Made by a program: the position numbers and the translations under genes. The notes under the pieces are model-generated. The model did no database searches. It worked only from the letters and a program-made list of their open reading frames with translations, and was not told the origin of the DNA. Positions 18,958 to 41,498 of a stretch of 64,000 bases of DNA are shown one piece after another. Origin of the DNA: Candidatus Sabulitectum sp. (GTDB taxonomy: Bacteria; Fermentibacterota; Fermentibacteria; Fermentibacterales; JCC-6); contig JAIOSV010000089.1 of the NCBI GenBank assembly GCA_021107435.1, positions 111,347-175,346 of the forward strand, read 5' to 3'. Within the stretch, counting starts at the first letter, position 1; every line of letters starts with the position of its first letter.

Positions 18958-19102
18958 GCAGGACAGCGATAATACTACGGTATGAAATGACCGTCAAGTC
19001 TGAAATACAGTAAAAGCACGTACCTGTTGACACGCGGATTTTTTATTCATAATTCATAACTCGGTGTCCAAACTTTCTTTTTGATTGGAGGCTGCCAGAA
19101 AT

Positions 19103-19945
19103 ATGAACAAATATGGAATTCCAGCGGCGATTCTGCTCGCCTGCACTGTGCTTTTTTCAGCCTGCGGTGGAGAGAATCCGATTCCGGAATTACGTCTTGT
19201 GCCTGGCACGGCACTCCTCCATGTGCATGTTGAACCCGGTTTAAACTCCAGCTTAACATCTTTTGCCGGGGACAATGTCAGCGGTTTTGTTCTTGCTGAC
19301 TCTCTGCTTAAGAAGGGATCTCTGGGTCTTTCCCTTATTGGTGTTGATATTTCAACACTGGAGCCCCAACTTCTCATACTTACCCGGAACGCAACAACAG
19401 AATATGCCACTGCTCTTGCTGCCAGAGTTCTGAATCTTGATCCCAGACAGGAAGCAAACAGGGTTGATCTTATGTCAGAACACGGGTACGCCAGAGCTTC
19501 AGTTGCTGGAAGAGACGGATGGACAGCTGTTTACATAGGGCCAGCACCGCACATCACACTTGGCAGCTGGCTGGATCTAAAGAGAGATAATTCCCTTGCG
19601 GCGGATACCTCCCTGGCAAAGGTGATACCAGAGAACAGACACATAACAGTCCTTTTCCCGGGAAATCTGTTCGGATTTGTATCGCTGTTGCCACTGGAAA
19701 GACAAATCCCATGGTGGACAAACTACAAGGATGCAGCCGAAACGGTAAAACCCGCGGCTCTATCCCTCTCTTTCTCCTGGCCGGAGCCGCATGCGGAAGA
19801 ACCTGTTCAGGCAGGAATTATTCTTGCCCGACGGGATGGAGGAGTCAGTTCTGTAGAGATTTCGGTATCCGATACCCGCATTGACACTGACAGCTGCTTC
19901 ACTCTTCTGCTGAATCTGGCAGAAAGGAGTGTCTTTAATGAGTAA
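19103..19945 (+). CDS. lipoprotein, hypothetical
   Basis: MNKYGIPAAILLACTVLFSACGG has a signal peptide and Cys lipobox. GGAGG SD lies 11 nt upstream of the ATG. The ORF-track start at 19085 is a TTG. First gene of a three-gene operon with the ABC pair. Confidence 0.5.
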   Translation: MNKYGIPAAILLACTVLFSACGGENPIPELRLVPGTALLHVHVEPGLNSSLTSFAGDNVSGFVLADSLLKKGSLGLSLIGVDISTLEPQLLILTRNATTEYATALAARVLNLDPRQEANRVDLMSEHGYARASVAGRDGWTAVYIGPAPHITLGSWLDLKRDNSLAADTSLAKVIPENRHITVLFPGNLFGFVSLLPLERQIPWWTNYKDAAETVKPAALSLSFSWPEPHAEEPVQAGIILARRDGGVSSVEISVSDTRIDTDSCFTLLLNLAERSVFNE

Positions 19946-20609
19946 ACCTTTAATCAGCGCCCACTCTATTGTAAGATTCTTCGACAGCCTCAAGGTTCTT
20001 AACGGCAGCGAGTTCAACCTGACAGAAGGAGAATTTGTAGCCATAACCGGCAAAAGCGGAGTTGGAAAGTCCACTCTGCTGGGCGTTCTTGGCACCCTTG
20101 ATTCTTCCTTCAGCGGAGAACTGTTTATCAACGGAGTTAATACAGCTGAAGCCTCCTCCTCGCAGCTGGCAGAACTGCGCAGGGAATTTATGGGGTTCAT
20201 TTTTCAGGATTTTCACCTGCTTCCCAATCTCAGTGCTCTGGACAATGTTCTTCTCCCGGCGGTTTTCTGCGGAACAGACACCGGCAGTATCAGAGATGAC
20301 GCAAGGGCTATTCTTTCCAGACTGGATCTTCGAAATGATAACACACCAACACGATTTCTCTCAAGGGGTGAAAGACAGAGAGTTGCCTCTGCCAGAGCAC
20401 TGGTTAACAATCCGCGGGTTCTCATGGCTGATGAACCCACAGCAAGTCTGGACGAAGAGAGTGAGGCAAATCTCTTCGATCTGCTTGATTCGCTGCGCAA
20501 GGAAAAGGGATTTGCGATGATTGCCGTCCTGCACTCGAAAAAAATACTCTCCAGGGCAGACAGAATTCTTGAGCTCAAGGAGGGAGTTCTTTATGAAAAA
20601 CATGCGTAA
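19938..20609 (+). CDS. ABC transporter ATP-binding protein (LolD/MacB-type)
   Basis: Walker A GKSGVGKST, ABC signature LSRGERQRVASARAL and Walker B VLMADEPT. The ATG at 19938 has an AAAGGAG SD and overlaps the upstream stop. The track start at 19929 is a GTG. Confidence 0.85.
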   Translation: MSKPLISAHSIVRFFDSLKVLNGSEFNLTEGEFVAITGKSGVGKSTLLGVLGTLDSSFSGELFINGVNTAEASSSQLAELRREFMGFIFQDFHLLPNLSALDNVLLPAVFCGTDTGSIRDDARAILSRLDLRNDNTPTRFLSRGERQRVASARALVNNPRVLMADEPTASLDEESEANLFDLLDSLRKEKGFAMIAVLHSKKILSRADRILELKEGVLYEKHA

Positions 20610-21876
20610 AGCCATATCCCTCTGGAACCGCGGCCACTGGAAAGATTATGTGTTCAGCCAGGGCATGCTGCTTATTGCCTCCCTTCTTCTTGTCTTCTTC
20701 ATATCCATAGGACTGGGTGTAGGGACTATTCTTCAAAGGTTCCTCTCCTCTGATCTTCCCGAGGAACAGGTTCGTGTTACACCACTTGGCGTTCAGGCAG
20801 GGTTTTTCCAGACGGAAAGAGGCGGCATGGAGATTACTGCCGACATCATGGATTCTCTCGCCGCGCTCCCGCAGGTGGATAGAATTGACCCTCAGGTTTA
20901 TGCCCATGTTCCAGCGTACCTGAGAGGACTCCTCGGGGGAAGAAACTATTACACGGACATCACTCTTGAAGGAGTCTCCGATGCCTTCGTACCCGATTCC
21001 ATGCTGGAGCACATCGACTGGAACTACACACTGAGTGACAGCTCGGAAAAACCTCTTCCAATAATCCTCAGTGAAAATCTTCTCATTCTTTACAACGCCG
21101 GCTTCGCTGAATCCAACGGACTCATGGGTCTTACCCCTGAAGGAGTCATTGGCCTTGAGGTAAGGGTAAATGTGGGCAGCAGCTCAATCGCCTCACTCCA
21201 GGCACCGCCGATTAATCTTCGAGCAGAGATAGTGGGAACATCCCGAAATACGGCTCTTTTTGCTCTGGCAGTTCCAATCGAGTTTGTAGAGGAAGTAAAC
21301 GCTCTTTACCTTCCGGATGACCGGCACACGTACAGCGCCCTGATGGTAACAGCTCACGAAGCGGAAGATGTGCCGGAAATAGTGCGTTACGCGGAAGAAC
21401 TGGGCCTTTCCGCGGAGACCCGCCGTGGAATAGCCCAGAAGGCCGAGATCCTGGTTGGTGTGGTAACGGCAGCTCTCGGAGCACTTGCCGCGGCAATTCT
21501 CTTCTCCGCTGTAGCCAGTGCCATTCACACTCTTGTCGCAGATCTAAAAAACAGATCTTACGCGCTTGGTGTTCTTGTAGCTCTGGGGACTAAAAGAGAG
21601 AGGCTGGTATACATTTTTGCCTTCCAGATTTTCTTCATGTCTCTGATCAGCACTGTATCGGGAGGCTTGCTGGGCTGCGGTCTGTCTTACCTTGTGAGCA
21701 CAACCTTACTGAACCTGCTTCCTGTACTGAAAATGGCGGTGAACTCACTGGCAGTGTTCCCTGTCGGCTGGCTCTCGGCAGGGCTTGGGCTTGTTCTTTC
21801 GGTTTCAACTGTTTCAGCCTGGTTCTTTTTCAGAAAAATACTGACAACACCTGTCACTGAACTTTTACGACGCTAG
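20593..21876 (+). CDS. ABC transporter permease, FtsX/MacB-like
   Basis: One N-terminal TM, a large periplasmic domain and three C-terminal TMs of FtsX type. The ATG at 20593 has an AAGGAGGGAG SD. The track start at 20521 is a TTG. Confidence 0.75.
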   Translation: MKNMRKAISLWNRGHWKDYVFSQGMLLIASLLLVFFISIGLGVGTILQRFLSSDLPEEQVRVTPLGVQAGFFQTERGGMEITADIMDSLAALPQVDRIDPQVYAHVPAYLRGLLGGRNYYTDITLEGVSDAFVPDSMLEHIDWNYTLSDSSEKPLPIILSENLLILYNAGFAESNGLMGLTPEGVIGLEVRVNVGSSSIASLQAPPINLRAEIVGTSRNTALFALAVPIEFVEEVNALYLPDDRHTYSALMVTAHEAEDVPEIVRYAEELGLSAETRRGIAQKAEILVGVVTAALGALAAAILFSAVASAIHTLVADLKNRSYALGVLVALGTKRERLVYIFAFQIFFMSLISTVSGGLLGCGLSYLVSTTLLNLLPVLKMAVNSLAVFPVGWLSAGLGLVLSVSTVSAWFFFRKILTTPVTELLRR

Positions 21877-28257: not shown

Positions 28258-28502
28258 AAAAATCCGTGATGACTCCGGATACTGGGAACAGATAGAAGAA
28301 TACATAGCAGAGCGTTCAGACACTCAGTTCAGTCACGGGATCTGTCCTGAATGCGAGAAGAATCTTTATACTGAATTGACTAATCTCAACAAGTGAGACC
28401 CCTCTTCAGGGTCTCCAACGGGAGTAGACTGCATTTCCTGAAGCTGATATTGGACGATCAGGCTCTACTGGGGCAATGTCTGTCCTGAAGTGAGACTTGG
28501 TA

Positions 28503-28542
28503 CTGTCATTGACCGAACAGAGTATCAGGCATTATCATGTAA
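28503..28542 (+). promoter_or_regulatory. conserved upstream element copy 2 (TTGACC-N18-TATCAT promoter-like)
   Basis: Identical 40-mer ~125 nt upstream of the second TPR paralog. Confidence 0.35.
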
Positions 28543-28664
28543 TCAAGTTGAGAACTCAATGTAAAAGGCAATTGAAAAACAATACCGGAATCACATTTCG
28601 ATATTATCAGATATCCAGTTTCTTCGCTCTGCGGGAAGATAGCTGTTCCTGAAATAGTGATGGA

Positions 28665-30002
28665 GTGCATGACATGCCGAATGAAGAAATTATTAAGCTG
28701 GAAAATGAACTGGAAAAACTCAGACTGGAATCTCCTGGTTTAGAACTCACGGTTACGCTGAATAAACTTGCTTATGCCTGTCTCCATTCGGATCCACGCA
28801 CCGCGGAAGTGCACGCTCTGGAAGCACAGTCCCTTTCGATAAATCTGGGATTTCCTGTAGAGCTGGCAAAAAGCGACACTACGCTTGGAAGGATTAATCA
28901 GGAGGCAGGTAATTTCCCTGAGGCAATGTCGTATTGCCGGAAGTCAATGAATATCTATGAAGAACTCCGGGACGGGAACGGGATGGCATCTGTTAATGGT
29001 ACACTGGCAGCCATATACTGGTCCCAGGGCATGATTGACAAAGCTCTTGAGCACTTCCTCGAATCTCTCAGGCAAAAACAGGAATGTGATGCCAGCCATG
29101 ATGAACTTGCCAACTGCCACTTCAACATAGGCTCATGCTACTGCAGCCTGAACCGTTTTGATCTGGCGCAGGCATCCTATGAATACGTGCTGAAAATATG
29201 GGAAAAGTCAGGAGAACTCGAGAATCTGGCATACATCTACAACAACATCGGCACTCTCTATGGGAAAAAGAAAGAGCTGGACAAGGCTCGTGAGTACTTC
29301 CAGAAAGCTCTTGATTTCAGAAAGGATCTGGGAGATAAAAAAGGCATGGCAAGCACTCTCAGCAATCTGGGAAGTCTGCATAAAGATCTCGGCGATAATG
29401 AATCAGCTCTGAGCTTCTACAACAGAAGCCTCGAACTGTATGAGGAGATCGGCAACCAAAGAGGAGTTGCCTATACATGCGGGTGTGCGGGTGGGATATA
29501 CACTGCCCTGGGAAGCCTTGACAAAGCTGAAGAAACTATCATCAGAGGCCTGGAGATAACAAGAAAGCTAAAGATACAGGATTGGGAGATCCACTGCCTG
29601 GAGATGATAACAGACCTGTACGAAGCGAAAGGAGATCTGCAAAAGGCACTGATGTACTCCCAGGAATTGAACATACGAACAAAAGAGAATCTGAACGAAA
29701 AAAGTCTGGAAAAGATCGCAAGGCTTCAGGTACAATTCGAAACCGAGAAGAAGGAAAATGAAGCTGAGATTTATCGTTTGAAAAACGTCGAACTTTCCGG
29801 TATGAATAATCAGCTACGCGAAGCTTTGACTCATGTGAAGAAACTTCAGGGAATGCTTCCTATCTGCGCAAGCTGCAAGAAAATCAGGGATGATGACGGT
29901 TACTGGCAGCAGATTGAGTCTTATATCTCCGATCACTCCGACGCGAAAATCACTCACGGAATGTGCCCCGAGTGTATAACAAAGCTATACGGCGAAGGGT
30001 GA
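28665..30002 (+). CDS. TPR-repeat protein, paralog 2, with intact C-terminal Cys4 (CxxC...CPEC) zinc-ribbon-like tail
   Basis: TPR repeats, then a coiled coil (ETEKKENEAEIYRLKNVELSGMNNQLREAL), then LPICASCKKIRDDDGYWQQIESYISDHSDAKITHGMCPECITKLYGEG. No signal peptide, so it is cytoplasmic. Confidence 0.75.
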   Translation: MHDMPNEEIIKLENELEKLRLESPGLELTVTLNKLAYACLHSDPRTAEVHALEAQSLSINLGFPVELAKSDTTLGRINQEAGNFPEAMSYCRKSMNIYEELRDGNGMASVNGTLAAIYWSQGMIDKALEHFLESLRQKQECDASHDELANCHFNIGSCYCSLNRFDLAQASYEYVLKIWEKSGELENLAYIYNNIGTLYGKKKELDKAREYFQKALDFRKDLGDKKGMASTLSNLGSLHKDLGDNESALSFYNRSLELYEEIGNQRGVAYTCGCAGGIYTALGSLDKAEETIIRGLEITRKLKIQDWEIHCLEMITDLYEAKGDLQKALMYSQELNIRTKENLNEKSLEKIARLQVQFETEKKENEAEIYRLKNVELSGMNNQLREALTHVKKLQGMLPICASCKKIRDDDGYWQQIESYISDHSDAKITHGMCPECITKLYGEG

Positions 30003-30012: not shown

Positions 30013-32772
30013 TCAGAATCTCAGCCTTAAATACATCTCTGAATCCAGTTTCTTCCAACTTTCAACCACAGGCGTGCGGGTGTAATCCAGCGAAGTACCG
30101 AAAACCAGTGAAATCCGTCCAGGCAGATCGAATTCAAGTTCTCCCACTGCATTGGCAACAATTTTAGTCATGTCCTTCGGCGGAAGATAGATACTTCCCG
30201 AAAGCCACAATGAAGGAAACCAGGACACAACACTTGAAGCCCATGTACTCAAAGATGCATAGGCTGTTAACTCATCTGTTCTTCCCTGATCTGTGCTCCA
30301 TTTCGTGTTAACAAGACCCGCTCCGGTTTCCGGAGCAATCCATATCCACGAGGCTGGCCAGCTTTTCCAACCAGCAGCCAGGTAAGAACTCACCTGCCAT
30401 GGACGTACTGTTATAGGCTGCCGATCCCAGCTGGAGCTGGCTCCTGCATATAAATGATCGGTGAGAAAATGTTCTGCGGAAAGAGAAGCCCAGGCAGTCC
30501 TGCGAATATCTTTTCCATCCTTTATCTCCGATCTGGCACTGGTCTCAAAGGAAACGGAACTGCCCATTCGGCCAAAGCTCCTTGAAATGCTACCGCCGCC
30601 GCCGTAGTACTGCTCGTCAATGTTACCGCCTGTGGAAGACAGGTCAATCCAGAGATTCCAGCTGAATGGACTAAAACTCCTTCTTTTAAGCCCTGGATCG
30701 TAGTCCTCACCGCTGATATACCGGAGCCTGCTCTCAGCATAAGAATAGCCCGGTTCTATCCGCAGGGCTTCCAGATACCGATCAAGTGCTCCCTCGGGAT
30801 TTCCGCGGTTTTCCTCAATCAAACCCAGATAGCAGATTGCATAGACTGAAGCAGGATTTCTTTCGACAACTTGCAGAAGAAGCTCTTCAGCTCTTGTCAA
30901 TTGATCATCAAAGAGATGCGCTTCTGCAAGCGATGTTGTCAGTATCTCGTTCCACGGGTAGAAATCATACGCATTTGCAAGCAGCTCAATTGCCTGCTCA
31001 ATCATTTCTTCTTCGTAGTAGTAGTCTGCGATGCTCACGGCAACTTGATAATCGTCTGTTTCCAGCCCTGCCGCCAATTCGTAGCACAGCTTCCTGTCCC
31101 AGTATCTTTCCAGAACCCGGTACAGCTCACCAAGGTTGATGATTTCCCAGGGGGTATCCGGAAGAAACAGAAATGCTCTATCGGCAAAGTCATGAGATAA
31201 TGAAATATAGTGGCCATCATAAGCACTCCACCCGGCAGAAATCCAGGCATCCTGCCACGTGTTCGATATTTCTTCCGAAAGAGAATCCGTGTTTTCTCCT
31301 TTGGTTTCCAGGAGCAGTATCCTTTCTGCTGCGACAACCCCGGAATCCCCGCTTAAAAGCAGATATTGATCAAGGGAAGAAAGCGCCTCATCGGGCTCAC
31401 CGATAATCCGCTGAACTCTGGCAAGGTCAAGCCACATTGAGGAATACTCCTGATCAAGTTCCAGAGCTCTGGAAAAGCAGTGTTCGGCGGAATCAATCAA
31501 TAATTCAGCTACTGCCATGCTGCCGAGTTCCCCCCATATCCATGGATCGCCGTTCTCCAGAACAAAAAGGGCTTCACTGTACCATTCCGCTGCGGTATGG
31601 CTTTCACCACCAATGTTAAAAAGATCTCCTCTGCGCTGCCAGCCGTAAAGGTATTGCGGATCAATTGAAATACTGGTTTCATAAACCTCAGCAGCCTCGG
31701 AATACATTCCTCTGCTTTCAAGCACCCACCCCAGCTCACCGTACAACCATGGTTCAGGATCAAGTTCTATACATTTTCGCAGAGCAGACTCGGCTCCCGG
31801 GAAGTTCTCTTCGGATTCATAGAGAAAAGCAAGTTCCTGCCAGGCCTGCAAGTAGTTTGAATCCAGCAGAACTGCCTGCTCAAGCAGTTCTCTGGCATAA
31901 ATGGGATCTGTATTCAGCCTGAGCTTTGCAAGCTGGAAAAGAGACCAGGGATTGTCGGGAGAAAACTCGAGAGAGCATTGAAAAAAACTGTCTGCGAGAT
32001 CAGGCCTGCCCTGATCCAGCATACAAGACGCAAGTTTGCTCCATGCCCATCCGTATTCCGGTCGGATCTGCAGCACCTCCCTGTAAACTTTGATAGCTTC
32101 TCCGTTCATCTTGATACCCTCAAGAAGGAGACCAAGGGATGAGTAAGTCGGGACTCTTGCGGGGTCCTGCTGAATAACCTCTCTGTAAACAGCTATGGCT
32201 CTGAGGGCATCTCCCGACTCTTCGAGAGCCTGACCATACTGATAGAGAAGGGGAATACAATCCGGCAGGCGTCGTACACCTTCTTCTGAAACAACCAGAG
32301 CATCACCAGTCCTGCCTTCATCAATGAGCGCCATGGACAGAGTGAGCCATGCAGGACCGAATGAAGAATCCGCCCCCAGTGAAGCATTAGAGTGAATCAC
32401 AGCTTCCGCGCTGTTTCCCGTAGAAAGCAGCCAGTAGCTGTATGCCTCGCTGAGAACAGCATCAGTACCAATAGCAAGTCGAAAGGCTTTCGAGAACAGG
32501 CTATCCATTATGGTTGAATCCTGCCGCATCCCCACAAAGGCAAGGGCCGTCCATGTTCTGTAGTCTGTACTGTCCAGCGCAACAGCTTCCCCGGCAGTTC
32601 TCAACGGATCTCCTGTACCGTTTCCAAACTGTGAAATAGCTTTCACTGCGAGATCGACAGCTGAATCGCCATATCGGGAGGATACACGCTCCATGTTGTC
32701 CCAGTTCAACTGAGAGTATTCCTGATACCAGTCTACAGGCCAGGCGGACAACAATGTCAGTAGGAAAATCAA
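30013..32772 (-). CDS. outer-membrane protein: periplasmic TPR array plus C-terminal beta-barrel (PgaA/BcsC/PelB-like architecture)
   Basis: Signal peptide MIFLLTLLSAWPVDW. About 650 aa of TPR-like helical repeats. The last ~250 aa show an alternating hydrophobic pattern and end in ...EMYLRLRF. The terminal aromatic is typical of beta-barrel OMPs. Confidence 0.55.
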   Translation of the reverse strand: MIFLLTLLSAWPVDWYQEYSQLNWDNMERVSSRYGDSAVDLAVKAISQFGNGTGDPLRTAGEAVALDSTDYRTWTALAFVGMRQDSTIMDSLFSKAFRLAIGTDAVLSEAYSYWLLSTGNSAEAVIHSNASLGADSSFGPAWLTLSMALIDEGRTGDALVVSEEGVRRLPDCIPLLYQYGQALEESGDALRAIAVYREVIQQDPARVPTYSSLGLLLEGIKMNGEAIKVYREVLQIRPEYGWAWSKLASCMLDQGRPDLADSFFQCSLEFSPDNPWSLFQLAKLRLNTDPIYARELLEQAVLLDSNYLQAWQELAFLYESEENFPGAESALRKCIELDPEPWLYGELGWVLESRGMYSEAAEVYETSISIDPQYLYGWQRRGDLFNIGGESHTAAEWYSEALFVLENGDPWIWGELGSMAVAELLIDSAEHCFSRALELDQEYSSMWLDLARVQRIIGEPDEALSSLDQYLLLSGDSGVVAAERILLLETKGENTDSLSEEISNTWQDAWISAGWSAYDGHYISLSHDFADRAFLFLPDTPWEIINLGELYRVLERYWDRKLCYELAAGLETDDYQVAVSIADYYYEEEMIEQAIELLANAYDFYPWNEILTTSLAEAHLFDDQLTRAEELLLQVVERNPASVYAICYLGLIEENRGNPEGALDRYLEALRIEPGYSYAESRLRYISGEDYDPGLKRRSFSPFSWNLWIDLSSTGGNIDEQYYGGGGSISRSFGRMGSSVSFETSARSEIKDGKDIRRTAWASLSAEHFLTDHLYAGASSSWDRQPITVRPWQVSSYLAAGWKSWPASWIWIAPETGAGLVNTKWSTDQGRTDELTAYASLSTWASSVVSWFPSLWLSGSIYLPPKDMTKIVANAVGELEFDLPGRISLVFGTSLDYTRTPVVESWKKLDSEMYLRLRF

Positions 32773-33215
32773 TTTTTTCTCTCCTTGCCGGTTACACTAT
32801 CAATTCGTATTGCGATGATGCCTGTTCTTTTCGCCATTTCCTCTGTAATCACGGAAGAGCTGCCCAGATACTCCACACATATCATTTCAAGAACCCTTTT
32901 TACCATATCGATATCAGAAACAAAAACAGCGGTTCCCCAGGCAATAACACTTTTGTAGTAAGTTGTCTTTTTCTCTGTGCTAACTCCGTACATTTCATCA
33001 AACTCAAGACATACTCCTGGCTCTGCTCTCATTGCCTCTGCTTTTCGCCCTTCAAGAGCACAGTGGAAATAAACAGTACCATTACTGTAAACAAAGTTCA
33101 GCGGAACTACATAAGGCTCCCCTCTGGAAATCATACCAAGCCTGACCACAGAACATTCCATTATGAATTTATCAATTTTATCTCTTGAAATGATTTCTCT
33201 CTCTTTCAGTCTCAC
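32769..33215 (-). CDS. pyridoxamine 5'-phosphate oxidase-like FMN-binding family protein
   Basis: 148 aa with the split-barrel PNPOx-like pattern (VVRLGMISRGEPYVVPLNFVYSNGTVYFHCALEGRK). It overlaps both neighbours by 4 nt, so it is operonic. Confidence 0.6.
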   Translation of the reverse strand: MRLKEREIISRDKIDKFIMECSVVRLGMISRGEPYVVPLNFVYSNGTVYFHCALEGRKAEAMRAEPGVCLEFDEMYGVSTEKKTTYYKSVIAWGTAVFVSDIDMVKRVLEMICVEYLGSSSVITEEMAKRTGIIAIRIDSVTGKERKN

Positions 33216-33992
33216 TTACTGTCCCCACACTGTAAAAGTCAGCCCTGCAAGTGCTACGGTCCAGCAGTACCAGGCAAAGCCTGTGAGTTTTCCCTGTTTG
33301 ACAAACTTAACAAGAAGGGAAAGAGCTCCGAATCCCACCACGGCAGACACAAGAAAGCCAATAATTATGTTACTGAACGGGATATTCCAGCTGGCCGATG
33401 GGAGTTCCTTAACTGCAGCTCCCAGTATGGCGGGTATGGCCAGAAGGAACGAGAATCTGGCTGCTTCCTCTCTTGAAAGCCCCGCGAAAAGACCTGTACA
33501 GATAGTGGTTCCTGAACGGGAGACTCCAGGCAGAATTGCAAGAGCCTGAGCCAGCCCGACAAGCACACCCCTGTTAAAAGTAATTCCCGGTTTCCTGACG
33601 GCAGAGATTCTGCCGGACAGGAAAAGGAATGTTCCTGTGAATATCAGAGCACCGGAAACAAATAACATATTGCTGCGAAGGCTTTCTATAAAATCACCGA
33701 ACAGCAAACCCGCAACGGCCACAGGTATCGTTCCCGCCGCAAGGGTAAGACCAAGAACAACACTCTTTTTCTCCCGGAGAACGATACCACGAAGCAGTAT
33801 AACAATATCTTTCCAGTAGAAAACAAACACAGCCACAAGGGTGCCGAGGTGAAGGATAATGTCAAAAGCCAGCCCGCCCTCGGGAACATCCAGCAGATTT
33901 GATGCCATGGCGAGATGCCCGGAGCTGGAAACTGGAAGAAATTCTGTCAAACCCTGAACTACAGCCAGAATTGAAGCTTCAAGTGGATTCAT
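33216..33992 (-). CDS. uppP: undecaprenyl-diphosphate phosphatase
   Basis: MNPLEASILAVVQGLTEFLPVSSSGHL is the BacA/UppP signature with multiple TMs. Confidence 0.9.
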   Translation of the reverse strand: MNPLEASILAVVQGLTEFLPVSSSGHLAMASNLLDVPEGGLAFDIILHLGTLVAVFVFYWKDIVILLRGIVLREKKSVVLGLTLAAGTIPVAVAGLLFGDFIESLRSNMLFVSGALIFTGTFLFLSGRISAVRKPGITFNRGVLVGLAQALAILPGVSRSGTTICTGLFAGLSREEAARFSFLLAIPAILGAAVKELPSASWNIPFSNIIIGFLVSAVVGFGALSLLVKFVKQGKLTGFAWYCWTVALAGLTFTVWGQ

Positions 33993-35239
33993 TCTATAAA
34001 CTCCCTGTGCAGTTCCTGAAGCGCGCTGTCCCTCTGATCAAGAAGAACCAGTGCGCTTATAGTAGCATGTGAATCCACCGTTTGCAGGGCATTGATATCA
34101 ACCCGTTCAAGTGCTTCGCAGAACCTGGCCATAACCCCGGGAAGCCCATGCATTCCTGCTCCCACTATGGAAACCTTCACGCATGGGCTGATGGTCGTGT
34201 ACTGCAGATCCATTGAATCAAGAAGTTTCTTAAGCTCTCCGGTAGAATCCACAGGTACCGTAAATGCGGCAGAACAATTAAAAACACTGAACATATCCAT
34301 GGAGATCCCGCTGTCTGCGATCTTCCTGAACAGCCCGGCAAAGAAGAAAGAAGGTTTCCCTGAACCGGTAACAGTAAACCCTGTAACAACCTGTCCGGAT
34401 GCAACCCCAACAATGTATCTGGTGTTTTCAAGAGGTTCTGCAGCCACCTCAGTAACCATCTCTCCTGTGCGGAAAGATTTGATTTTCAGGGTCAAGGCAG
34501 ATGCCTGAGCGACCTCAGCGGCTCTGGGATGAACAACTTTTGCGCCATGCCATGCCATCTGCCTGAGATCTTCTGCTGAAATTATGTCCAGTTCCCGTGC
34601 AAATGGTACCTTCTCCGGATCAGCAGTGTAAACGGAATCAACCGTTTTGTAAAGAAGAACCTCATCAGCATCCAGCGCAACCCCCAGAACCACAGCGGAA
34701 GTGTCCGTTCCCCCTCGGCCCAGTGTGTTCAAATGACCCATTGGAGCCACACCCTGAAACCCGGAAATGACTACAACGTTGTACTTTGAAAGGGATTCTT
34801 GAATTCTGGCAGTATCTATACTGACTATCCGCGCGTTGCCTGATACTCCATCAGTGGATATCCCAGCTTCCCAGCCGGTGAGTGCTTCAGCACTGATACC
34901 ATTGTTCCGGAGGGCTGAAGCCATAACCAGCGCGCTTACAACCTCCCCGCAGATCATCAACCTGTCCTTCTCGCGAACGCTTGATTCAGTTGAAATAAGG
35001 TCAAGAAGAGTATCTGTAGCATACGGGTCCCCACTGCGTCCCATGGCGGACACAACTACAACCAGTTTTTCTGCCTCCTGAAGAAGGGAGCTGCAGTGGT
35101 TCGCTGCAGCACACCGATTCTCTTCAGTGGCCAGACTGGTTCCGCCGAATTTTGCAACCAGCAGTTTCTTCCGCAAGGCTAACAAACTCCCTTCCTGTAT
35201 CGCACCATGTAAAAAGCTTCCGGGCTCTCTCCCGGGCAT
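33989..35239 (-). CDS. aspartate kinase (monofunctional, two ACT domains)
   Basis: Kinase region LVAKFGGTSLATEEN...GRGGTDTSAVVLGVAL plus C-terminal ACT repeats. The start is uncertain. The ATG at 35239 overlaps the upstream GT gene by 116 nt. A TTG at 35176 with a GGAAGGGAG SD is an alternative. Confidence 0.8.
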   Translation of the reverse strand: MPGREPGSFLHGAIQEGSLLALRKKLLVAKFGGTSLATEENRCAAANHCSSLLQEAEKLVVVVSAMGRSGDPYATDTLLDLISTESSVREKDRLMICGEVVSALVMASALRNNGISAEALTGWEAGISTDGVSGNARIVSIDTARIQESLSKYNVVVISGFQGVAPMGHLNTLGRGGTDTSAVVLGVALDADEVLLYKTVDSVYTADPEKVPFARELDIISAEDLRQMAWHGAKVVHPRAAEVAQASALTLKIKSFRTGEMVTEVAAEPLENTRYIVGVASGQVVTGFTVTGSGKPSFFFAGLFRKIADSGISMDMFSVFNCSAAFTVPVDSTGELKKLLDSMDLQYTTISPCVKVSIVGAGMHGLPGVMARFCEALERVDINALQTVDSHATISALVLLDQRDSALQELHREFIE

Positions 35240-36281
35240 TGCTAGACATTTTTTTTCTCAATGTTCCGTTGTCAATAAGTATTCTCAAGTACCTGGCACA
35301 ACTCTCAACATCCCCCGGAGCCATCAGGTATCCATTGTCTCCGTGGGTAATCAGTTCAGGAACTGCCCCGGCATCAGCAGCGAGAACCGGCAGACCTGCC
35401 CACAAGGCTTCAGCCACCGCTATCCCATACCCCTCCCAGTGAGAAAGATTCGCAAGGATGTGGCTCTGATTATACATCTCGTAAAGGCCTTCAGTGAAAA
35501 GGTGACCTGTGAATGTAACCTTCCCGCCAAGTGAATCCGCCTCCTTTCGAACCGCTTCCGCGTAATCTCTGTCTGCTGTTTCATCTCCGAGAATAGACAG
35601 ATGGAAGTCCCTGTCTCCCAACATGGCGCACGCCTTTACCAGAGTAAGCTGATCTTTTCTGGAGCAGATAGTGCCCACAGAAAGAATTCGCACAGGTAGT
35701 TGCTTCGGTTCAGAATCAGTCCTGAACCGGTCAAAACCAGGCGGGATAACACAAAGTCTGCTCTCCGGAATTCCAAGGGAAATCACATCATCTGCTGTGC
35801 TTCTGCTGTTTACCCATATCTTTTTTCCGCAGGACAGGAACCAGCGAACAATGTTTTTCCGGAGATTGGAAACACCGCCTGCTCTGTCATGCCACTCAAG
35901 GTGATGAACCATGTACAGCACAGGATACCCCAGGGTGAAAAGTATCAACCTGAGAGGTGCCATGAAACTGTAGCTTTTACTGACCACAAGCAGATCAGGT
36001 CTGTTTCTCAGCACTCGTTTTAGAACATAAAAAGATCCGCGAATCCGAGAGCCCCTGAGCTTCTTCGGCATTGTGGTAAGATGAATTACATCAACTTCAT
36101 GCCCGGCCTTGCTCAATGCGCTGGCCATCTTAAAATTGAAGTAATACCCCCCCGTACTGTAATTTTTCAGTCCCAGCATAACAAATGATATTCTCAAATT
36201 ATCTCTTTCTATAAGCTTCCGCAGCGCCACAGAGCAATGCAGGAGTATAGCCAAGCATCGGATAAAAGTCACACTGCGCAA
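35124..36281 (-). CDS. glycosyltransferase family 4 (GT-B, retaining)
   Basis: C-terminal EGYGIAVAEALWAGLPVLAADAGAVPELI is the GT4 E-x7-E motif. The N-terminal start is uncertain. Confidence 0.8.
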   Translation of the reverse strand: MRSVTFIRCLAILLHCSVALRKLIERDNLRISFVMLGLKNYSTGGYYFNFKMASALSKAGHEVDVIHLTTMPKKLRGSRIRGSFYVLKRVLRNRPDLLVVSKSYSFMAPLRLILFTLGYPVLYMVHHLEWHDRAGGVSNLRKNIVRWFLSCGKKIWVNSRSTADDVISLGIPESRLCVIPPGFDRFRTDSEPKQLPVRILSVGTICSRKDQLTLVKACAMLGDRDFHLSILGDETADRDYAEAVRKEADSLGGKVTFTGHLFTEGLYEMYNQSHILANLSHWEGYGIAVAEALWAGLPVLAADAGAVPELITHGDNGYLMAPGDVESCARYLRILIDNGTLRKKMSSNARERARKLFTWCDTGREFVSLAEETAGCKIRRNQSGH

Positions 36282-36342
36282 AGAACCCGTGAAGAATTAT
36301 GTTCGGGCAGAGAGACACCTGGCGCAGGGAGGGAATTTGTCA

Positions 36343-37602
36343 ATGGACAGTGTCTGTATGGTGGTCAAGAATCGCCTTTCAAATGATGCCCGTGTAAAAA
36401 AGGAAATGGCAGCTCTTTCCGGAGACGGGTGGCATGTAACTGTAATCGCCATGCCTGAGACCGGCTTTCCGGAAGAAGAGAACAGAGATGGCATCCGCAT
36501 ATTGAGGCCTCCGGTATTCTCAAAGACAAAAGAAAATCTTCGCGGTCAAGTTGTTCAGGCTTCTGAAAAGACTGACACCTCTCTTAAAGCCAGAGCGATC
36601 AGATCTCTGAGAAGAAATAAACTCCGGAGATTTATTGCTGATCTCCAGCGGGACATCCCCTGGGAAAAAAGACTCTGGCGAGCTGCCTGGCAGGTTAACG
36701 CTGATGTATACCACGCGAATGATCTGGACACATTGCAAATCTGCGGCTCTGTCGCGGCAAAAAGAAATTCTAAACTTGTCTACGACAGCCACGAGCTGTG
36801 GCTGGAATCCTCCAGGTATCTTATCGCTACTCACCCTGTCAACCGGTTAAGACTGAAAAGAATAGAACAGCGATATGTTCCGAAGGCAGACGCGGTTATC
36901 GCTGTTACCCCCATGCGGGGCAAGAAGATGCGACAAATGTACCCCTCCATGAAAATCCTTGAAATTGTGGAAAACGCGCCGGAGAAACTCATTGAACTCC
37001 CCACCAGCGGCAGGCTCCGAGCTATGATTAATGCAGCACCCGACACTGTGATCGCCCTTTACCAGGGAGTTCTCTGCCCTGAAAGAGGTCTTGAAGAGCT
37101 GCTCAGCGCTGCAAAGCTCACTACTGACCCTGCTGTCAGATTCGTAATTATAGGCATGGACACATGGAATGGAACTCTTCAGGAAATGGCCCTGAACATG
37201 GGCTTGAAGGACAGAGTTGTATTTATTCCTCCTGTACCTTCAGAAGAGCTTCCGGAGATTACTGTGGACGCGGATATCGGATTCATTCTTTTCAGGAATA
37301 CCTGCCTGAACCACTATTACTCACTGCCAAACAAGCTTTACGAATACATGATGGCTGGAGTTCCCATAGTATCAAGTGATTTCCCTGAGCTGAAGAGGGT
37401 TCTGAATGAGGTGAAAAGCGGGATTACCGTTGATCCGGACTCCCCTGAATCTATATCCAATGCAGTTGACAAACTTGCGGGTGACCCTGCTATGCGAAAA
37501 AGGATGAAGAAAAACGGCAGAGCGGCCGCACTGGACAAATACAACTGGGAACCACAAAGCGATCTTCTCCGGAGCTTGTACAGAAAGCTGAGGCAGACAT
37601 GA
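36343..37602 (+). CDS. glycosyltransferase family 4
   Basis: The C-terminal YEYMMAGVPIVSSDFPELKRVL region is GT4-like. The ATG at 36343 has a GGGAGGG SD. The track start at 36289 would leave only 7 nt of divergent intergenic space. Confidence 0.75.
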   Translation: MDSVCMVVKNRLSNDARVKKEMAALSGDGWHVTVIAMPETGFPEEENRDGIRILRPPVFSKTKENLRGQVVQASEKTDTSLKARAIRSLRRNKLRRFIADLQRDIPWEKRLWRAAWQVNADVYHANDLDTLQICGSVAAKRNSKLVYDSHELWLESSRYLIATHPVNRLRLKRIEQRYVPKADAVIAVTPMRGKKMRQMYPSMKILEIVENAPEKLIELPTSGRLRAMINAAPDTVIALYQGVLCPERGLEELLSAAKLTTDPAVRFVIIGMDTWNGTLQEMALNMGLKDRVVFIPPVPSEELPEITVDADIGFILFRNTCLNHYYSLPNKLYEYMMAGVPIVSSDFPELKRVLNEVKSGITVDPDSPESISNAVDKLAGDPAMRKRMKKNGRAAALDKYNWEPQSDLLRSLYRKLRQT

Positions 37603-38867
37603 AGAGACTGATTCTCCTTACCTACACTTTTCCCCCTCTTTCATCAGGCGGTACCCCGGTTGTAATGAACATGTGCAGGTACCTTCCTGACAATGACTGG
37701 GAGGTAACAGTTGTTACTGTTGAAAATCCAAAGGGAATGAAAACAGACCCATCGCTTCTTCACGACCTTCCGAGAGACCTTAAGGTGATCAGAGTTCCGC
37801 ATGGGAGAAGCGGCACGGGAACAACTACTACCGCTGGAATCACACATGTAAACCCCCTCAGCAGAATGGTCAGATTTGTTGCCCACAACTACATTTTGAT
37901 ACCTGACAGAGTAATTACCTGGAGGAATCAGGTTCTTCCCGTACTGAAAAAGATCATCGCGGATGAAAAACCACACGCAATAATGTCGTTCGGCCCGCAT
38001 CACTCTCTGCACCTTATAGCCATCTCCGCTGCAAAAGAAACCGCGCTTCCTCTCATCCCGTTTTTCGGTGATCTGTGGCTGGAAGACAGCTACGTGGAAT
38101 GGCCCAGTCGCTTCAACAGGCTGGTTGAATCCCTTCTCGAAAGAAACGTTGTCCGCAAAGCAAGGGGAATTATTGCAACTACAGAGGCATCCACCGGCTA
38201 CTTCATAGACAGATACGAAAACATCTGCCCCCCTACCCATGTGAACGAAAACGCGTACGACCCTCGAAGAATTAAAAGGGCGGATTCGGAGGTGACAGAC
38301 CCGGAGCATCTAACTGCCGGATGGACAGGAAACTTTTTCGGTAACCATTCTCCCGGAGAGTTGCTGGAGGGACTTGAAATGTTTTATAAAAGAAACCCTC
38401 ATTCAAAGCTCAGAATAAAAATGGCAGGCAGCATTGACCCCATATCCCGGAAGAGGCTGAACCGTGTGCCTCTAAAGGATAAAGTTACACACTACGGTCA
38501 TCTCAAATGGGATAAAGTGCCTCCTTTTCAAAAAAATTGTGACATCCTTATAGGATATCTCAACCCCCGCAGAGGCAGTCATTATAAAAACGCCAGCAAG
38601 ACAGCTGAATATCTTGTCTCCGGAAGAACCATTCTTGGCATTGTTCCTGAAGGATCAATGGCTGAAAGAATAAGAAAACCGGGCAGAGGATACATAGTTC
38701 ATCCTGATGCGGAACAGATAGCAACAACACTTGAAAACATGGAATACCAGTGGAAAACATCCAATCTTCGAGTACCTGTTGACTATGCGAAAATTGAGGA
38801 AAGGTTTTCAGCAGTTAATGTAATGAAGAAAACTGCTGACTTCCTGAACAGAATGGCCGGTCCATGA
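37599..38867 (+). CDS. glycosyltransferase-like protein (GT4-type N-terminal domain)
   Basis: MKRLILLTYTFPPLSSGGTPVVMNMCRYL resembles the GT4 N-terminal Rossmann domain. The stop and start overlap (ATGA) with both neighbours. Confidence 0.5.
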   Translation: MKRLILLTYTFPPLSSGGTPVVMNMCRYLPDNDWEVTVVTVENPKGMKTDPSLLHDLPRDLKVIRVPHGRSGTGTTTTAGITHVNPLSRMVRFVAHNYILIPDRVITWRNQVLPVLKKIIADEKPHAIMSFGPHHSLHLIAISAAKETALPLIPFFGDLWLEDSYVEWPSRFNRLVESLLERNVVRKARGIIATTEASTGYFIDRYENICPPTHVNENAYDPRRIKRADSEVTDPEHLTAGWTGNFFGNHSPGELLEGLEMFYKRNPHSKLRIKMAGSIDPISRKRLNRVPLKDKVTHYGHLKWDKVPPFQKNCDILIGYLNPRRGSHYKNASKTAEYLVSGRTILGIVPEGSMAERIRKPGRGYIVHPDAEQIATTLENMEYQWKTSNLRVPVDYAKIEERFSAVNVMKKTADFLNRMAGP

Positions 38868-40087
38868 GGATACTGTATGTGCTCGGATTCCTTCCCCCGT
38901 ATATCACAAGAGAAATCGAGGCAATGGCAACCCGGGAACACAGTATTTCCGTTCTGCTTCCTGAAGACAGAAAGAATAGCGAAACAGCCGATTTCTGGAA
39001 CGGTATTTCTCAGTACCCGGAAACCAATTCTGTAGGAATACGAAGAAACTTGAAATTCAAGTACCTGACCTGCCCGCTGAAACAGCTGGCAGCACCGGCA
39101 TTCAGGTCTGTCCGATTTATTAAGACCCTCACAAGATCACTGAAAGAGAGGGAATTCAGATACTTCGTAATAGCCTCTGATGCAGTGACCGGAATGGATC
39201 ATCCCAGCAAACCGGATGTGATACATGCACACTTCGCGCAGGATCAGGCTCACATCGCGAGAATCATGGCATCTATTCTCAAGGTTCCATACACCGTAAC
39301 CACGCATGCTACAGATATATTCGTCCCAAAGTGCAAAACGAGATTGCGCAGGGTCCTCTGCGGGGCTTCCAGAGTTTTCACCATCTCCGAATACAATCTC
39401 AGTCGCCTTGCGGAATATGGACTAAATCGTGAGAATATAGTTGTGTCGCGACTGGGTCTGGATACTACAGAACTGCCTTACCGGAAAAAACCTTCTTCCC
39501 CTCCTGTGGCGGTTTGTACTGCAAGCGGACTTGTTCCCAAAAAGGGAGTACATGTACTCATTCAAGCCATGCGGTTGCTTCAACAGAGGAGAATCAATTG
39601 CAGGCTTACCGTAATCGGCTCAGATCCTGACGGTACAAAACTCGAAGAATACCGGAAGAATACCACAGATCTTCCAGTTGACTTTGTCGGCGTACTGAAC
39701 TCGAAAGAAACACTGGATGCTGTTTCAGCTGCCTCTTTCTTTGTTCTTCCCTGCATTGAGGCAGAGAACGGAGACAAAGATGGAATCCCTGTAGCTCTCA
39801 TAGAAGCTATGGGCATGGGCGTACCATGCATTTCCACCAGGATTTCCGGTATTCCTGAACTGATTGAGAACGATATCAGCGGCATTCTTGTAAAACCTGA
39901 ATCCCCTGAGGAACTTGCCGTCGCAATGACAACTCTGCTATCCGGAATAGAACTGGCAGACCGTCTGGGCAGCGCAGGCAGGAACAAAGTAATTGCCAAT
40001 CACTCCCCTGATAATCAGGCAGATATTCTTACAGCGAATCTAACTCAGATAGTGGCGGAGAATACGGTGAGAAAAACAGAAAAGTGA
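38864..40087 (+). CDS. glycosyltransferase family 4
   Basis: MRILYVLGFLPPYITREIEAM N-terminus. C-terminal DKDGIPVALIEAMGMGVPCISTRISGIPELIEN is the GT4 motif. Confidence 0.8.
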   Translation: MRILYVLGFLPPYITREIEAMATREHSISVLLPEDRKNSETADFWNGISQYPETNSVGIRRNLKFKYLTCPLKQLAAPAFRSVRFIKTLTRSLKEREFRYFVIASDAVTGMDHPSKPDVIHAHFAQDQAHIARIMASILKVPYTVTTHATDIFVPKCKTRLRRVLCGASRVFTISEYNLSRLAEYGLNRENIVVSRLGLDTTELPYRKKPSSPPVAVCTASGLVPKKGVHVLIQAMRLLQQRRINCRLTVIGSDPDGTKLEEYRKNTTDLPVDFVGVLNSKETLDAVSAASFFVLPCIEAENGDKDGIPVALIEAMGMGVPCISTRISGIPELIENDISGILVKPESPEELAVAMTTLLSGIELADRLGSAGRNKVIANHSPDNQADILTANLTQIVAENTVRKTEK

Positions 40088-40146
40088 TGGATATGACTCT
40101 CTACTCCATTGAAGACACAAACCTGTCGTACTGAAGGATTGAACAA

Positions 40147-40722
40147 ATGGCAGCTGATGCACCTATTAGTTCTGTTAACTGGCCTGATGAATTTCCAGTT
40201 CTGGAAACTGAGAGGTTATTGCTGCGCCAGGTTTCCACCAACGACACAGGCGACCTCTTCCGGTGCTACTCCGATCCTGAAGTTATGAAATACCTGGCAA
40301 CTCCTCTGGAGAATGAAGACGCAATCGGGGGCATCCTGGAAGACTACAAAGATGGTTTCAGCGAAGGGTACAACCTGATCTGGGCTCTTGATATCAAGGA
40401 AACAGGAGTCTTTGCCGGTACCGCCGGATTTGAGGAATTCAGTTTCCTTGACGGCAAAGCTGATATCGGCTTCAGCATGCTCCCGTCACATCAGGGAAAA
40501 GGATACATGGAAGAAGTTCTGCTTGAAATCATAAACTACGGTTTTCAGATATTAAGGATTAACAGGATCCAAACCACTGTTGTCCCGGAAAATATTCCAT
40601 CCGTAAAACTTCTGGGGAAACTGGGTTTCCACAGGGAAGGCTGCATGAAACAGAGTGTTTTCTTCAACAACAGTTATCATGACGAATTGATCATGGCTCT
40701 TCTGAGTAATACAGAGGAATAA
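40147..40722 (+). CDS. GNAT family N-acetyltransferase (RimJ/RimL-like)
   Basis: LLLRQVSTNDTGDLFRCYSDPEVMKYL and QGKGYMEEVLLEIINYGF are acetyl-CoA binding motifs. Confidence 0.75.
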   Translation: MAADAPISSVNWPDEFPVLETERLLLRQVSTNDTGDLFRCYSDPEVMKYLATPLENEDAIGGILEDYKDGFSEGYNLIWALDIKETGVFAGTAGFEEFSFLDGKADIGFSMLPSHQGKGYMEEVLLEIINYGFQILRINRIQTTVVPENIPSVKLLGKLGFHREGCMKQSVFFNNSYHDELIMALLSNTEE

Positions 40723-41498
40723 TGTCCGAAGAATTCTACAACGGATTCGCGGAGTACTACCATTTCCATCTGGCCGCTGTTGGACGTGATGACGTACGCT
40801 TTTTCACAGAGCTTTGCAGGTCAACTGGCGGAAAAGTTCTTGAGGTCGGCTGTGGAACCGGCAGAACGCTCATCCCCTGCGCAAAAGCAGGCGCGGATGT
40901 AACTGGACTGGACCTTTCCGGGGACATGCTGTCCTTCTGCAGAAAGGCTGTCAATCAGGAGAGCAGGAATGTCAACAGCAGAGTTGAACTTGTAAAAGCA
41001 GATATGACAAGCTTTGATCTGGGACGGAAGTTTCAGCTGATCACCACACCTTTCCGCTCTTTCCAGCATCTGGCGACTGTAGAAGAACAACTGGCAGCTC
41101 TTTCCTGCATCCGCAGTCATTCAGCTTCCGGAGGAACTTTTGTTCTGGATATATTCGATCCTGATCTGGAAATCCTCACTGATACTAATCGGGCACAGGA
41201 ATTCGGAGAAGAACCGCCGTTCATTCTGAGAGATGGCAGAGAAGTCACTGTCACATACAGAAACCCCTTGGTGAACCCTGTTATGCAGATCGTGCACTGC
41301 GAGATGATCTTCAGAGTAAAGCATTCTGACGGACGACATGAAAGACTGGTGCAGAAATTCACTATGCGCTTCACTTACCGCTGGGAAGCTGAGCATCTTC
41401 TCCACAGAGCAGGGTTCAGAGTTCGGTCTGTCCTTGGAGGGTACAACGGTGAACCTGTCGGTTCAGGAGAATTGATTTTCATTGCGGAAGCCAGATGA
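40722..41498 (+). CDS. class I SAM-dependent methyltransferase
   Basis: Motif I VLEVGCGTGRTLIPCAKAGADVTGLDLS. Translationally coupled to the GNAT gene. Confidence 0.8.
   Translation: MSEEFYNGFAEYYHFHLAAVGRDDVRFFTELCRSTGGKVLEVGCGTGRTLIPCAKAGADVTGLDLSGDMLSFCRKAVNQESRNVNSRVELVKADMTSFDLGRKFQLITTPFRSFQHLATVEEQLAALSCIRSHSASGGTFVLDIFDPDLEILTDTNRAQEFGEEPPFILRDGREVTVTYRNPLVNPVMQIVHCEMIFRVKHSDGRHERLVQKFTMRFTYRWEAEHLLHRAGFRVRSVLGGYNGEPVGSGELIFIAEAR

Follow-up and report, generated by a model that had tools for sequence, protein, structure and literature searches.

Organisation of the locus

We analyzed a stretch of 64,000 nucleotides of contig JAIOSV010000089.1 from Candidatus Sabulitectum sp., called here the window, and more specifically the locus at its positions 30013-41498. 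This locus consists of two divergent operons, and the last gene of the minus-strand operon encodes a predicted outer-membrane protein (hereafter OMP) in which a long array of tetratricopeptide repeats (TPR) precedes a small C-terminal barrel. The OMP and its genetic context are the subject of this work. Open reading frames (ORFs) were called and the encoded proteins were searched with Pfam and NCBIfam, which confirmed all ten gene calls, and with them the gene content and the two operons described in a first-pass annotation of the sequence:

30013-32772, minus strand: OMP gene, 919 aa (ORF, TPR matches in Pfam, AlphaFold2 model, exact database match)
32769-33215, minus strand: PNPOx-like/Nim-like flavoprotein, 148 aa (Pyridox_ox_2, 84.6 bits)
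33216-33992, minus strand: UppP/BacA undecaprenyl-diphosphate phosphatase, 258 aa (PF02673, 248.6 bits)
33989-35239, minus strand: aspartokinase with two ACT domains (TIGR00657, PRK08210, Pfam)
35124-36281, minus strand: glycosyltransferase GT4a, first gene of the minus-strand operon (Glycos_transf_1, 106 bits; Glyco_transf_4, 67 bits)
36289-37602, plus strand: glycosyltransferase GT4b, weakly WcaI-like (Pfam; WcaI family, 71.9 bits, below cut-off)
37599-38867, plus strand: GTc, a GT-B-fold protein (Glyco_trans_4_4, 42 bits; stp3, 22.9 bits)
38864-40087, plus strand: glycosyltransferase GT4d, EpsE/WcaL-like (Pfam; EpsE, 136 bits, and WcaL, 117 bits, both below cut-offs)
40147-40722, plus strand: GNAT acetyltransferase, RimJ/RimL-like (Acetyltransf_3, 95.7 bits)
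40722-41498, plus strand: class I S-adenosylmethionine-dependent methyltransferase (Pfam; daptide-type methyltransferase, 117.5 bits for a cut-off of 175)

Every junction in the locus is tight, despite differing spacing. The first-pass annotation had stated that all junctions overlap by 4 nt, which is true of four of the eight (aspartokinase/UppP, PNPOx/OMP, GT4b/GTc, and GTc/GT4d). The UppP and PNPOx genes abut (0 nt), the GNAT and methyltransferase genes share 1 nt, a gap of 59 nt separates GT4d from GNAT, and GT4a overlaps the aspartokinase gene by about 53-116 nt, a value that varies with the start chosen for the latter. The true start of the aspartokinase gene is probably the TTG at 35176 (MRKKLLVAKFGG), with a Shine-Dalgarno-like run, GGAAGGGAG, 10 nt ahead of it. 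GT4a probably starts at the TTG at 36197 (MRISFVMLG...) and GT4b at the ATG at 36343. These likely starts set the probable limits of the region between the operons:

36198..36342, between the two operons: probable divergent intergenic (promoter) region of about 145 nt

Scanning the locus for promoter and terminator consensus sequences gave the same counts as shuffled background. A search of the whole window with Rfam found no riboswitch or other RNA inside the locus, and hence no lysine riboswitch ahead of the aspartokinase gene.

Structure of the outer-membrane protein

The OMP is identical to MCD4708232.1, from a metagenome-assembled genome of Candidatus Sabulitectum, which NCBI labels merely "tetratricopeptide repeat protein". 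Several TPR families of Pfam match it with E-values of 1e-33 to 1e-10 (TPR_2 at 111.8 bits, and also TPR_19 and TPR_16). We modelled the protein with AlphaFold2 (AF2), whose inputs were a small family alignment for the barrel and an orthologue alignment of 8 sequences. The full-length model (pLDDT 85.6) has a short N-terminal helix, 41 helices, a linker of low confidence, and 12 strands. The barrel-only model (pLDDT 76, pTM 0.73) also has 12 strands, and the same ones occupy aa 703-918 of the full-length model. The two domains are placed as follows:

30715..32736, minus strand: TPR superhelix, aa 13-686, 41 helices (DSSP on the model) in about 20 TPR-like hairpins
30016..30666, minus strand: 12-stranded barrel, aa 703-919 (AF2), classed as divergent DUF481

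The first-pass annotation had described a TPR array that leads into a C-terminal barrel whose last residue is Phe, and the models bear this out (41 helices, 12 strands, C-terminus YLRLRF). It had also named a non-barrel C-terminus as an outcome that would speak against its reading, and AF2 folds this region into a barrel. The final ...YLRLRF, with Phe as the last residue, resembles a beta-signal. Orthologues have short, uncharged, hydrophobic N-termini followed by a conserved Trp, and their C-termini end in an aromatic residue or Leu, which makes both a signal peptide and an outer-membrane beta-signal plausible. We infer from these termini that the OMP is exported, and the TPR superhelix is presumed to lie in the periplasm.

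The most conserved stretch of the whole OMP is an invariant motif, WDRQPxTVRPWQ (aa 782-793, window 30424-30459), which sits in the barrel loop between strands 5 and 6, where local model confidence is below 50. Under the usual topology of such barrels, this loop would presumably lie on the extracellular side. Further invariant positions (GN, PExGxG...W, YxPP, and DYTRxP....W) gather at the same end of the barrel in the model.

When the full-length model was used as a query, Foldseek retrieved generic TPR superhelices only (OGT, Ctr9, and Ski3). With the barrel model, the nearest structures were NanC, NalP, FapF, VhGalP, KdgM, invasin, and PcoB, led by NanC (2wjr; E = 2.3e-6, TM 0.66 normalised to the target), and the top 50 included none of the structures of PgaA, BcsC, PelB, or AlgE. 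Sequence searches of the PDB gave no match, either with the last 236 residues of the OMP or with a 16-sequence family profile of the barrel.

Assignment to DUF481 and size of the family

By sequence, the barrel appears to be a divergent DUF481 domain of the YdiY type. The barrel of the window itself scores 14.9 bits against PF04338 (E = 0.027), under the gathering cut-off of 21.1 bits. The assignment follows from its relatives: 12 of the 16 aligned family members match PF04338, with E-values down to 1.3e-11, and some relatives carry the NCBI name "DUF481 domain-containing protein" together with precomputed PF04338 matches. The strand number agrees with this, the DUF481 family of TCDB (1.B.75) being predicted to have 12 strands (PMC4827864). 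The barrel of the OMP is thus like that of DUF481/YdiY proteins in size (about 215 aa) and in number of strands, but the canonical proteins stand alone at about 240-280 aa, whereas the OMP adds some 690 aa of TPR ahead of the barrel.

The family is small and easily missed. Word-indexed searches for homologues returned just 5-7 proteins, mostly fragmentary, and it took an exhaustive profile search and a genome scan to reveal it. The profile search, run against 1.84 billion representative proteins (E <= 1e-3), gave 25 matches, of which 8 have 915-956 aa and 7 have 400-607 aa, all with a long N-terminal extension, and the remainder are mainly fragments or marginal. The sole putative stand-alone barrel of ordinary length (P0030, 239 aa) lies at the margin. 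In our searches of the literature we found no publication that describes a TPR-DUF481 fusion.

A few distant TPR-DUF481-like proteins occur in other contexts. Two of them, of about 626 aa, come from an ENA metagenome scaffold (L066) and from a Logan-assembled sequencing run (L067), and their PF04338 matches are weak or absent on record. Their genes lack aspartokinase, UppP, and glycosyltransferase neighbours; one adjoins a GH94 gene and the other lies near a GHL10 gene. The contexts of the distant proteins P0026 and P0028 showed no aspartokinase, UppP, or glycosyltransferase genes. A link to GHL10 glycosidase-like genes, raised by L002 and L067, was dropped because no other locus has GHL10.

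Enzymes encoded in the two operons

The aspartokinase scores 269.1 bits against TIGR00657, above the cut-off of 208.7, and also matches AA_kinase (158 bits), ACT_7, and ACT_9, which places it in the aspartokinase family. Its highest-scoring model is PRK08210 (407.8 bits, under the equivalog cut-off of 474), which we take to represent the DapG type, although the model's own label is merely "aspartate kinase". The enzyme is probably the ordinary DapG-like aspartokinase of the organism and would provide the wall with diaminopimelate and lysine; that it modifies glycans is less probable. UppP contains a full-length BacA domain (PF02673 over aa 7-248) and scores 200.8 bits against TIGR00753, slightly below the cut-off of 217.5. 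The PNPOx-like protein reaches 67.6 bits with the NimABCDEF model, far under its cut-off of 260.

The four glycosyltransferases noted by the first-pass annotation could be classified in part. GT4a, GT4b, and GT4d have a GT4 N-terminal domain and a Glycos_transf_1 C-terminal domain in Pfam and belong to GT4, but in GTc the GT4 N-terminal domain alone was detected and its membership is partial. None of the four exceeds the cut-off of an NCBIfam equivalog, and the PelF model gives 21.7 bits for a cut-off of 100. The PDB matches of GT4a and GT4d are generic GT4 enzymes (for GT4a, MshA, SPS, and PimA), so that no specificity can be assigned.

Conservation across Fermentibacterota

To find relatives of the locus, we scanned one genome per GTDB species with an alignment of 7 sequences, since the 16-sequence alignment had no stretch conserved enough to seed the scan. 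This yielded 60 related loci, all of which are labelled Fermentibacteria, Fermentibacteraceae, Sabulitectum, Fermentibacter, Hyd24-12, or Aegiribacteria, or belong to unlabelled metagenome-assembled genomes with the same gene order. The gene encoding the OMP is found in every related locus, once per locus and in a housekeeping region, and its product has 915-936 aa in nearly all of them. Synteny was assessed by tblastn of the window proteins against all related loci, and the counts of adjacent genes given here refer to loci with enough flanking sequence.

The aspartokinase, UppP, and OMP genes form the invariant core of the locus. UppP lies immediately upstream of the OMP in 57/57 loci and is itself directly preceded by the aspartokinase gene in 57/57, the latter two genes being 0-58 nt apart. 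A GT4 gene adjoins the aspartokinase gene in all 54 loci where this could be seen; it is on the same strand, as GT4a is, in 42 of them and divergent only in 12. The first-pass annotation had named a locus split between unrelated contexts in relatives as another outcome that would speak against its reading, and these counts show that it is not split. The unit of aspartokinase, UppP, and OMP remains tight down to about 50% protein identity and is apparently co-transcribed. Orthologues of the four transferases are found throughout the phylum, with identities of 32-87% (43-87% for GT4b and 32-85% for GTc), a range like that of the OMP (31-82%), which indicates that the set is conserved and not strain-variable. 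To judge from these orthologues, the conserved set argues for a conserved product. One locus (L024) lacks the divergent glycosyltransferase operon, and its GT4a lies directly against the Gate and CCA genes, which in the window lie beyond the methyltransferase gene.

The remaining genes are accessory. PNPOx is a clade-specific insertion between UppP and OMP, found in 15 of the 60 loci, all of them closer Sabulitectum-like relatives (L004-L031). With tblastn, GNAT was detected in L001 and L016 alone, both assemblies of Candidatus Sabulitectum silens, and in two relatives whose contigs reach past GT4d (L003 and L031) a TPR gene occupies the position of GNAT and the methyltransferase gene. Hence GNAT is not conserved in the locus and the position of the methyltransferase gene varies in relatives, which does not sustain the idea of the first-pass annotation that the acetyltransferase and the methyltransferase modify a polymer. 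The two S. silens assemblies contain the locus, and in both of them the OMP, the glycosyltransferase genes, and many other genes are fragmented, likely by frameshift errors in the assembly. The OMP of L002 likewise has its TPR part in one frame and its barrel in another.

A shorter TPR-DUF481 paralogue (400-607 aa) directly follows the long OMP in the Aegiribacteria clade and in a deep lineage labelled "FCB group"; it is absent from the window and from its Sabulitectum and Fermentibacter relatives:

Loci with the short paralogue: L002, L038, L041-L047, L049, L051-L060, L063-L065, L068-L069

The envelope in which these proteins would act is that of a diderm. Genomes of Hyd24-12/Fermentibacteria indicate a diderm envelope with lipopolysaccharide (LPS) (PMC5030696), and Sabulitectum has been described with a typical Gram-negative envelope (PMC5763382).

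Genes flanking the locus

Convergent to the OMP operon, at 19085..21876 on the plus strand, the window encodes a lipoprotein (lipobox LFSAC), a LolD/MacB-like ABC ATPase, and an FtsX-type permease. Where the flanking sequence suffices (46/46 loci), this unit lies downstream of the OMP at a distance of 23 nt to 8 kb, and in L037 it is inverted and still beside the OMP. It is counted here as a conserved neighbour of the system rather than as a part of it. Past it come tuf, secE, nusG, rplKAJL, and rpoBC. In the window, rpoC, rpoB, nusG, and tuf, together with five tRNA genes (17022-18957), occupy 5142-18957, and this housekeeping backbone places the locus in a conserved region of the core genome. 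Between the FtsX/ABC genes and the OMP lies a beta-propeller gene (21888-23099), which many relatives share. It is followed by about 7 kb (23190-30002) that code for two TPR_12 proteins and for one protein of 1227 aa containing an FGE-sulfatase domain. This segment is best read as an insertion, since in most relatives the OMP directly abuts the beta-propeller, FtsX, and ABC genes. The second TPR protein of the insertion (28665-30002) has a Cys-rich C-terminal motif, LPICASCKKIRDD...HGMCPEC.

Upstream, the flanks of several distant loci contain genes for TldD/PmbA, saccharopine dehydrogenase, a LolA-like protein, and FtsX/ABC proteins; we found no Wzx, Wzy, phosphoglycosyltransferase, or Wza in them. 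No OPX or PCP protein was found in the locus of the window or in the annotated flanks of distant loci.

Farther along the window, an LVIVD-repeat beta-propeller protein is encoded at 46741-49008; its FlgD_ig-like C-terminal domain is possibly a sorting tail of the type IX secretion system. The RNA motif DUF3800-VI of Rfam occurs at 50141-50191 on the plus strand (61.7 bits, gathering score 35), directly 5' of a gene with a DUF3800 domain (50218-50985, plus strand), and a HipA-like kinase gene is found at 51132-52382.

Comparison with known outer-membrane systems

The domain plan of the OMP recalls that of the exopolysaccharide porins BcsC, PgaA, and PelB (and AlgK/AlgE): first a signal peptide, then an extended TPR superhelix in the periplasm, and finally an outer-membrane barrel at the C-terminus. 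Its approximately 20 repeats are comparable to those of BcsC and PelB, and in both cases glycosyltransferase genes are close by. However, the barrels of these porins have 16-18 strands (16 in PgaA, BcsC, and PelB), whereas that of the OMP has 12 and matches them neither in sequence nor in fold. The hidden Markov models of the porins reach TPR segments only: that of PgaA (TIGR03939) scores 38 bits, for a cut-off of 367, over residues 611-681, and that of BcsC (NF008520) 27 bits, for a cut-off of 858, over residues 150-228, and neither aligns to the barrel. The loci of the porins encode a synthase, a c-di-GMP receptor, and a periplasmic modifying enzyme, which the OMP locus lacks. No GT2, PilZ, GGDEF, or PelD-like domain was found in 30013-41498 or its flanks, and no deacetylase, hydrolase, or lyase in the locus of the window or in the related flanks examined; the absence of a polymerase and a deacetylase, already noted in the first-pass annotation, holds in Pfam and NCBIfam and extends to a GT2 synthase. 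Finally, the exopolysaccharide porins are accessory, while the OMP gene was recovered in every related locus, in a housekeeping region. The likeness to PgaA, BcsC, and PelB drawn in that annotation therefore stands for the domain plan and fails for the barrel, which has 12 strands instead of 16 and is of the DUF481 type. The OMP is an architectural analogue of these porins, not a member of their family.

Slam proteins also fuse a periplasmic TPR domain to a small outer-membrane barrel; they have 2-3 TPRs and a 14-stranded DUF560 barrel. TPR_Slam scores 32.9 bits on the OMP, for a cut-off of 35.2, over just aa 169-208, but the array of the OMP is far longer, Pfam detects no DUF560 in it, and no gene for a substrate lipoprotein lies downstream. 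The closest folds to the barrel include NanC, KdgM, and FapF, with sequence identities of just 5-10%. NanC and KdgM are uptake channels without a periplasmic domain, and FapF has a coiled coil and a plug and no TPRs, unlike the OMP. These channels show that 12 strands suffice for the passage of a linear acidic oligosaccharide (NanC, KdgM) or an unfolded peptide (FapF). To our knowledge, the characterised TPR-barrel fusions (BcsC, PgaA, PelB, and Slam) are all export devices.

A proposed envelope pathway and its alternatives

As the best explanation of these data, to which we give a probability of roughly 40%, we propose a housekeeping pathway in which the GT4 set makes a conserved envelope glycan linked to undecaprenyl phosphate, with the OMP standing at the outer-membrane end of that pathway. 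Assembly of this conserved glycan on the lipid carrier would fall to the cytoplasmic GT4 enzymes, and UppP would return the undecaprenyl carrier for reuse. The TPR superhelix may be able to bridge the greater part of the periplasm and would guide the steps that take place there or act as their scaffold. The small barrel would fix the assembly in the outer membrane, where it might be a narrow conduit of the size of NanC, KdgM, or FapF. The aspartokinase, in the manner of DapG, would merely supply wall precursors. By analogy, the OMP may work like BcsC, PgaA, and PelB. The closest folds of its barrel make a glycan plausible, because they include channels for acidic oligosaccharides (NanC, KdgM, and VhGalP) as well as the polypeptide exporter FapF. 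An undescribed exopolysaccharide or glycolipid is a possible product: what the first-pass annotation had proposed was an undescribed modified exopolysaccharide or glycolipid, and of this the conserved locus speaks in favour, whereas the modifying enzymes are not conserved and no export machinery is encoded nearby.

Several observations weigh against this proposal. Neither the locus nor the annotated flanks encode an inner-membrane exporter, an initiating phosphoglycosyltransferase, a flippase, or a polymerase, nor do they encode a synthase or a periplasmic glycan-modifying enzyme. It is hard to see what the aspartokinase would do in a glycan pathway, and the deep lineage represented by L063 has aspartokinase, UppP, OMP, and the short paralogue with no glycosyltransferase genes nearby. 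The adjacency itself could be inherited backbone, given the long housekeeping block around it (Lol/MacB-like ABC genes, tuf, nusG, rplKAJL, and rpoBC). The clustering of invariant motifs at loops that are predicted to be on the extracellular side would be atypical of a simple export pore. Lastly, DUF481 has no assigned function, and the authors of a simulation study call the function of YdiY unknown; the same study lists YdiY among the ten most abundant outer-membrane proteins of E. coli.

One alternative, which we find doubtful, keeps the envelope role and drops the tie to the GT4 genes: as an outer-membrane-anchored TPR scaffold, the OMP would organise peptidoglycan synthesis or remodelling, or coordinate the outer membrane with the wall. 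With the same reserve, it can be likened in function to LpoA, NlpI, and CpoB, the logic of the operon then being the supply of wall precursors through the DapG-like aspartokinase and UppP. The strictly invariant unit is indeed that of aspartokinase, UppP, and OMP (57/57), found in L063 without the glycosyltransferases, and the best model of the aspartokinase, PRK08210 (407.8 bits), is presumably of the DapG type. One OMP gene in each related locus, in a housekeeping region, fits a core envelope role better than an accessory exopolysaccharide, and a DUF481 mutant of Pseudoalteromonas is sensitive to fusidic acid, a barrier phenotype. However, homology to LpoA, NlpI, and CpoB amounts to generic TPR matches (26 bits for NlpI), the cluster has no gene for a penicillin-binding protein or a hydrolase, and a GT4 gene stands beside the aspartokinase gene in 54/54 loci, in 42 of them on the same strand with tight spacing. 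In a second alternative, which we consider unlikely, the gene order is simply an inherited core-genome backbone and the genes are not functionally coupled. The OMP would then be a lineage-specific DUF481 protein with an unrelated TPR role, and the GT4 genes would, just as improbably in our view, serve LPS core, glycolipid, or cytoplasmic glycosylation, none of which needs a dedicated porin. WaaG-type GT4 enzymes, for instance, act on the LPS core without Wzx/Wzy or a porin, and the absence of exporter genes from the locus and annotated flanks would be as expected. The mixture of an amino-acid biosynthesis gene with envelope genes in one operon points the same way, as does a block that runs through ABC/FtsX, tuf, secE, nusG, ribosomal proteins, and rpoBC in Sabulitectum, Aegiribacteria, and L063. 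Yet same-strand spacing of 0-58 nt maintained at about 50% identity is the usual signature of co-transcription under selection, and insertions and rearrangements flank aspartokinase-UppP-OMP and, PNPOx excepted, never fall inside it.

The conserved lipoprotein-ABC-FtsX neighbour raises another option, that the OMP is the outer-membrane partner of this MacB/Lol-type ABC system, or a Slam-like translocon, moving lipoproteins or unfolded polypeptides instead of glycans to the outer membrane or through it. The unit adjoins the OMP in 46/46 loci, even where inverted (L037), and some loci of the Aegiribacteria clade have LolA-like and FtsX/ABC genes on the other side too; FapF and autotransporter beta-domains are among the closest folds, and TPR_Slam matches weakly (32.9 bits against 35.2). 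We regard this as very unlikely nonetheless. The ABC unit is convergent and therefore not co-transcribed, 1-8 kb of variable genes intervene in many loci, the barrel is not DUF560, and no membrane-fusion adaptor was detected among the annotated neighbours. As for the idea that the OMP is a true porin of the PgaA/BcsC/PelB family exporting the polymer of a locally encoded synthase, its appeal lies in the TPR array, the C-terminal barrel ending in Phe, and the weak PgaA and BcsC matches. These matches (38 and 27 bits) are confined to TPR segments, the barrel has 12 strands and not 16, no exopolysaccharide porin figures among its 50 closest folds, and the locus lacks a GT2 synthase, a c-di-GMP receptor, a PelD/E/G-like protein, a deacetylase, and a hydrolase. 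With such a strand count and no homology in the barrel, membership in that family is effectively refuted, and we see next to no chance for it.

Significance

The gain is mainly one of annotation: what is labelled a "tetratricopeptide repeat protein" is an outer-membrane TPR-DUF481 fusion, which may be described as a new domain architecture of DUF481, analogous to the TPR-porins. The TPR-DUF481 block is an envelope operon restricted to Fermentibacterota. More speculatively, and we hold this to be doubtful as well, the OMP could be the outer-membrane component of an undescribed trans-envelope system present throughout the sampled Fermentibacterota, working either as a glycan-exporting TPR-porin or as a periplasm-spanning scaffold. 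In the first form it would be one possible fourth class of TPR-porin, with 12 strands, for a conserved glycan linked to a lipid carrier; in the second, which is another possibility, it would couple carrier recycling and the supply of wall precursors to the outer membrane. Should such a system exist, it would offer the first functional handle on the DUF481 family, YdiY included. If the functional inference is true, TPR-guided export or assembly at the envelope would have arisen independently on a small DUF481 barrel, and a widespread family of outer-membrane proteins would gain a testable context, that of undecaprenyl-phosphate recycling and GT4 glycosyltransferases. The block of aspartokinase, UppP, and OMP is the most conserved envelope operon found in Fermentibacterota, a phylum that is uncultured and often occurs in anaerobic digesters and in sediments.

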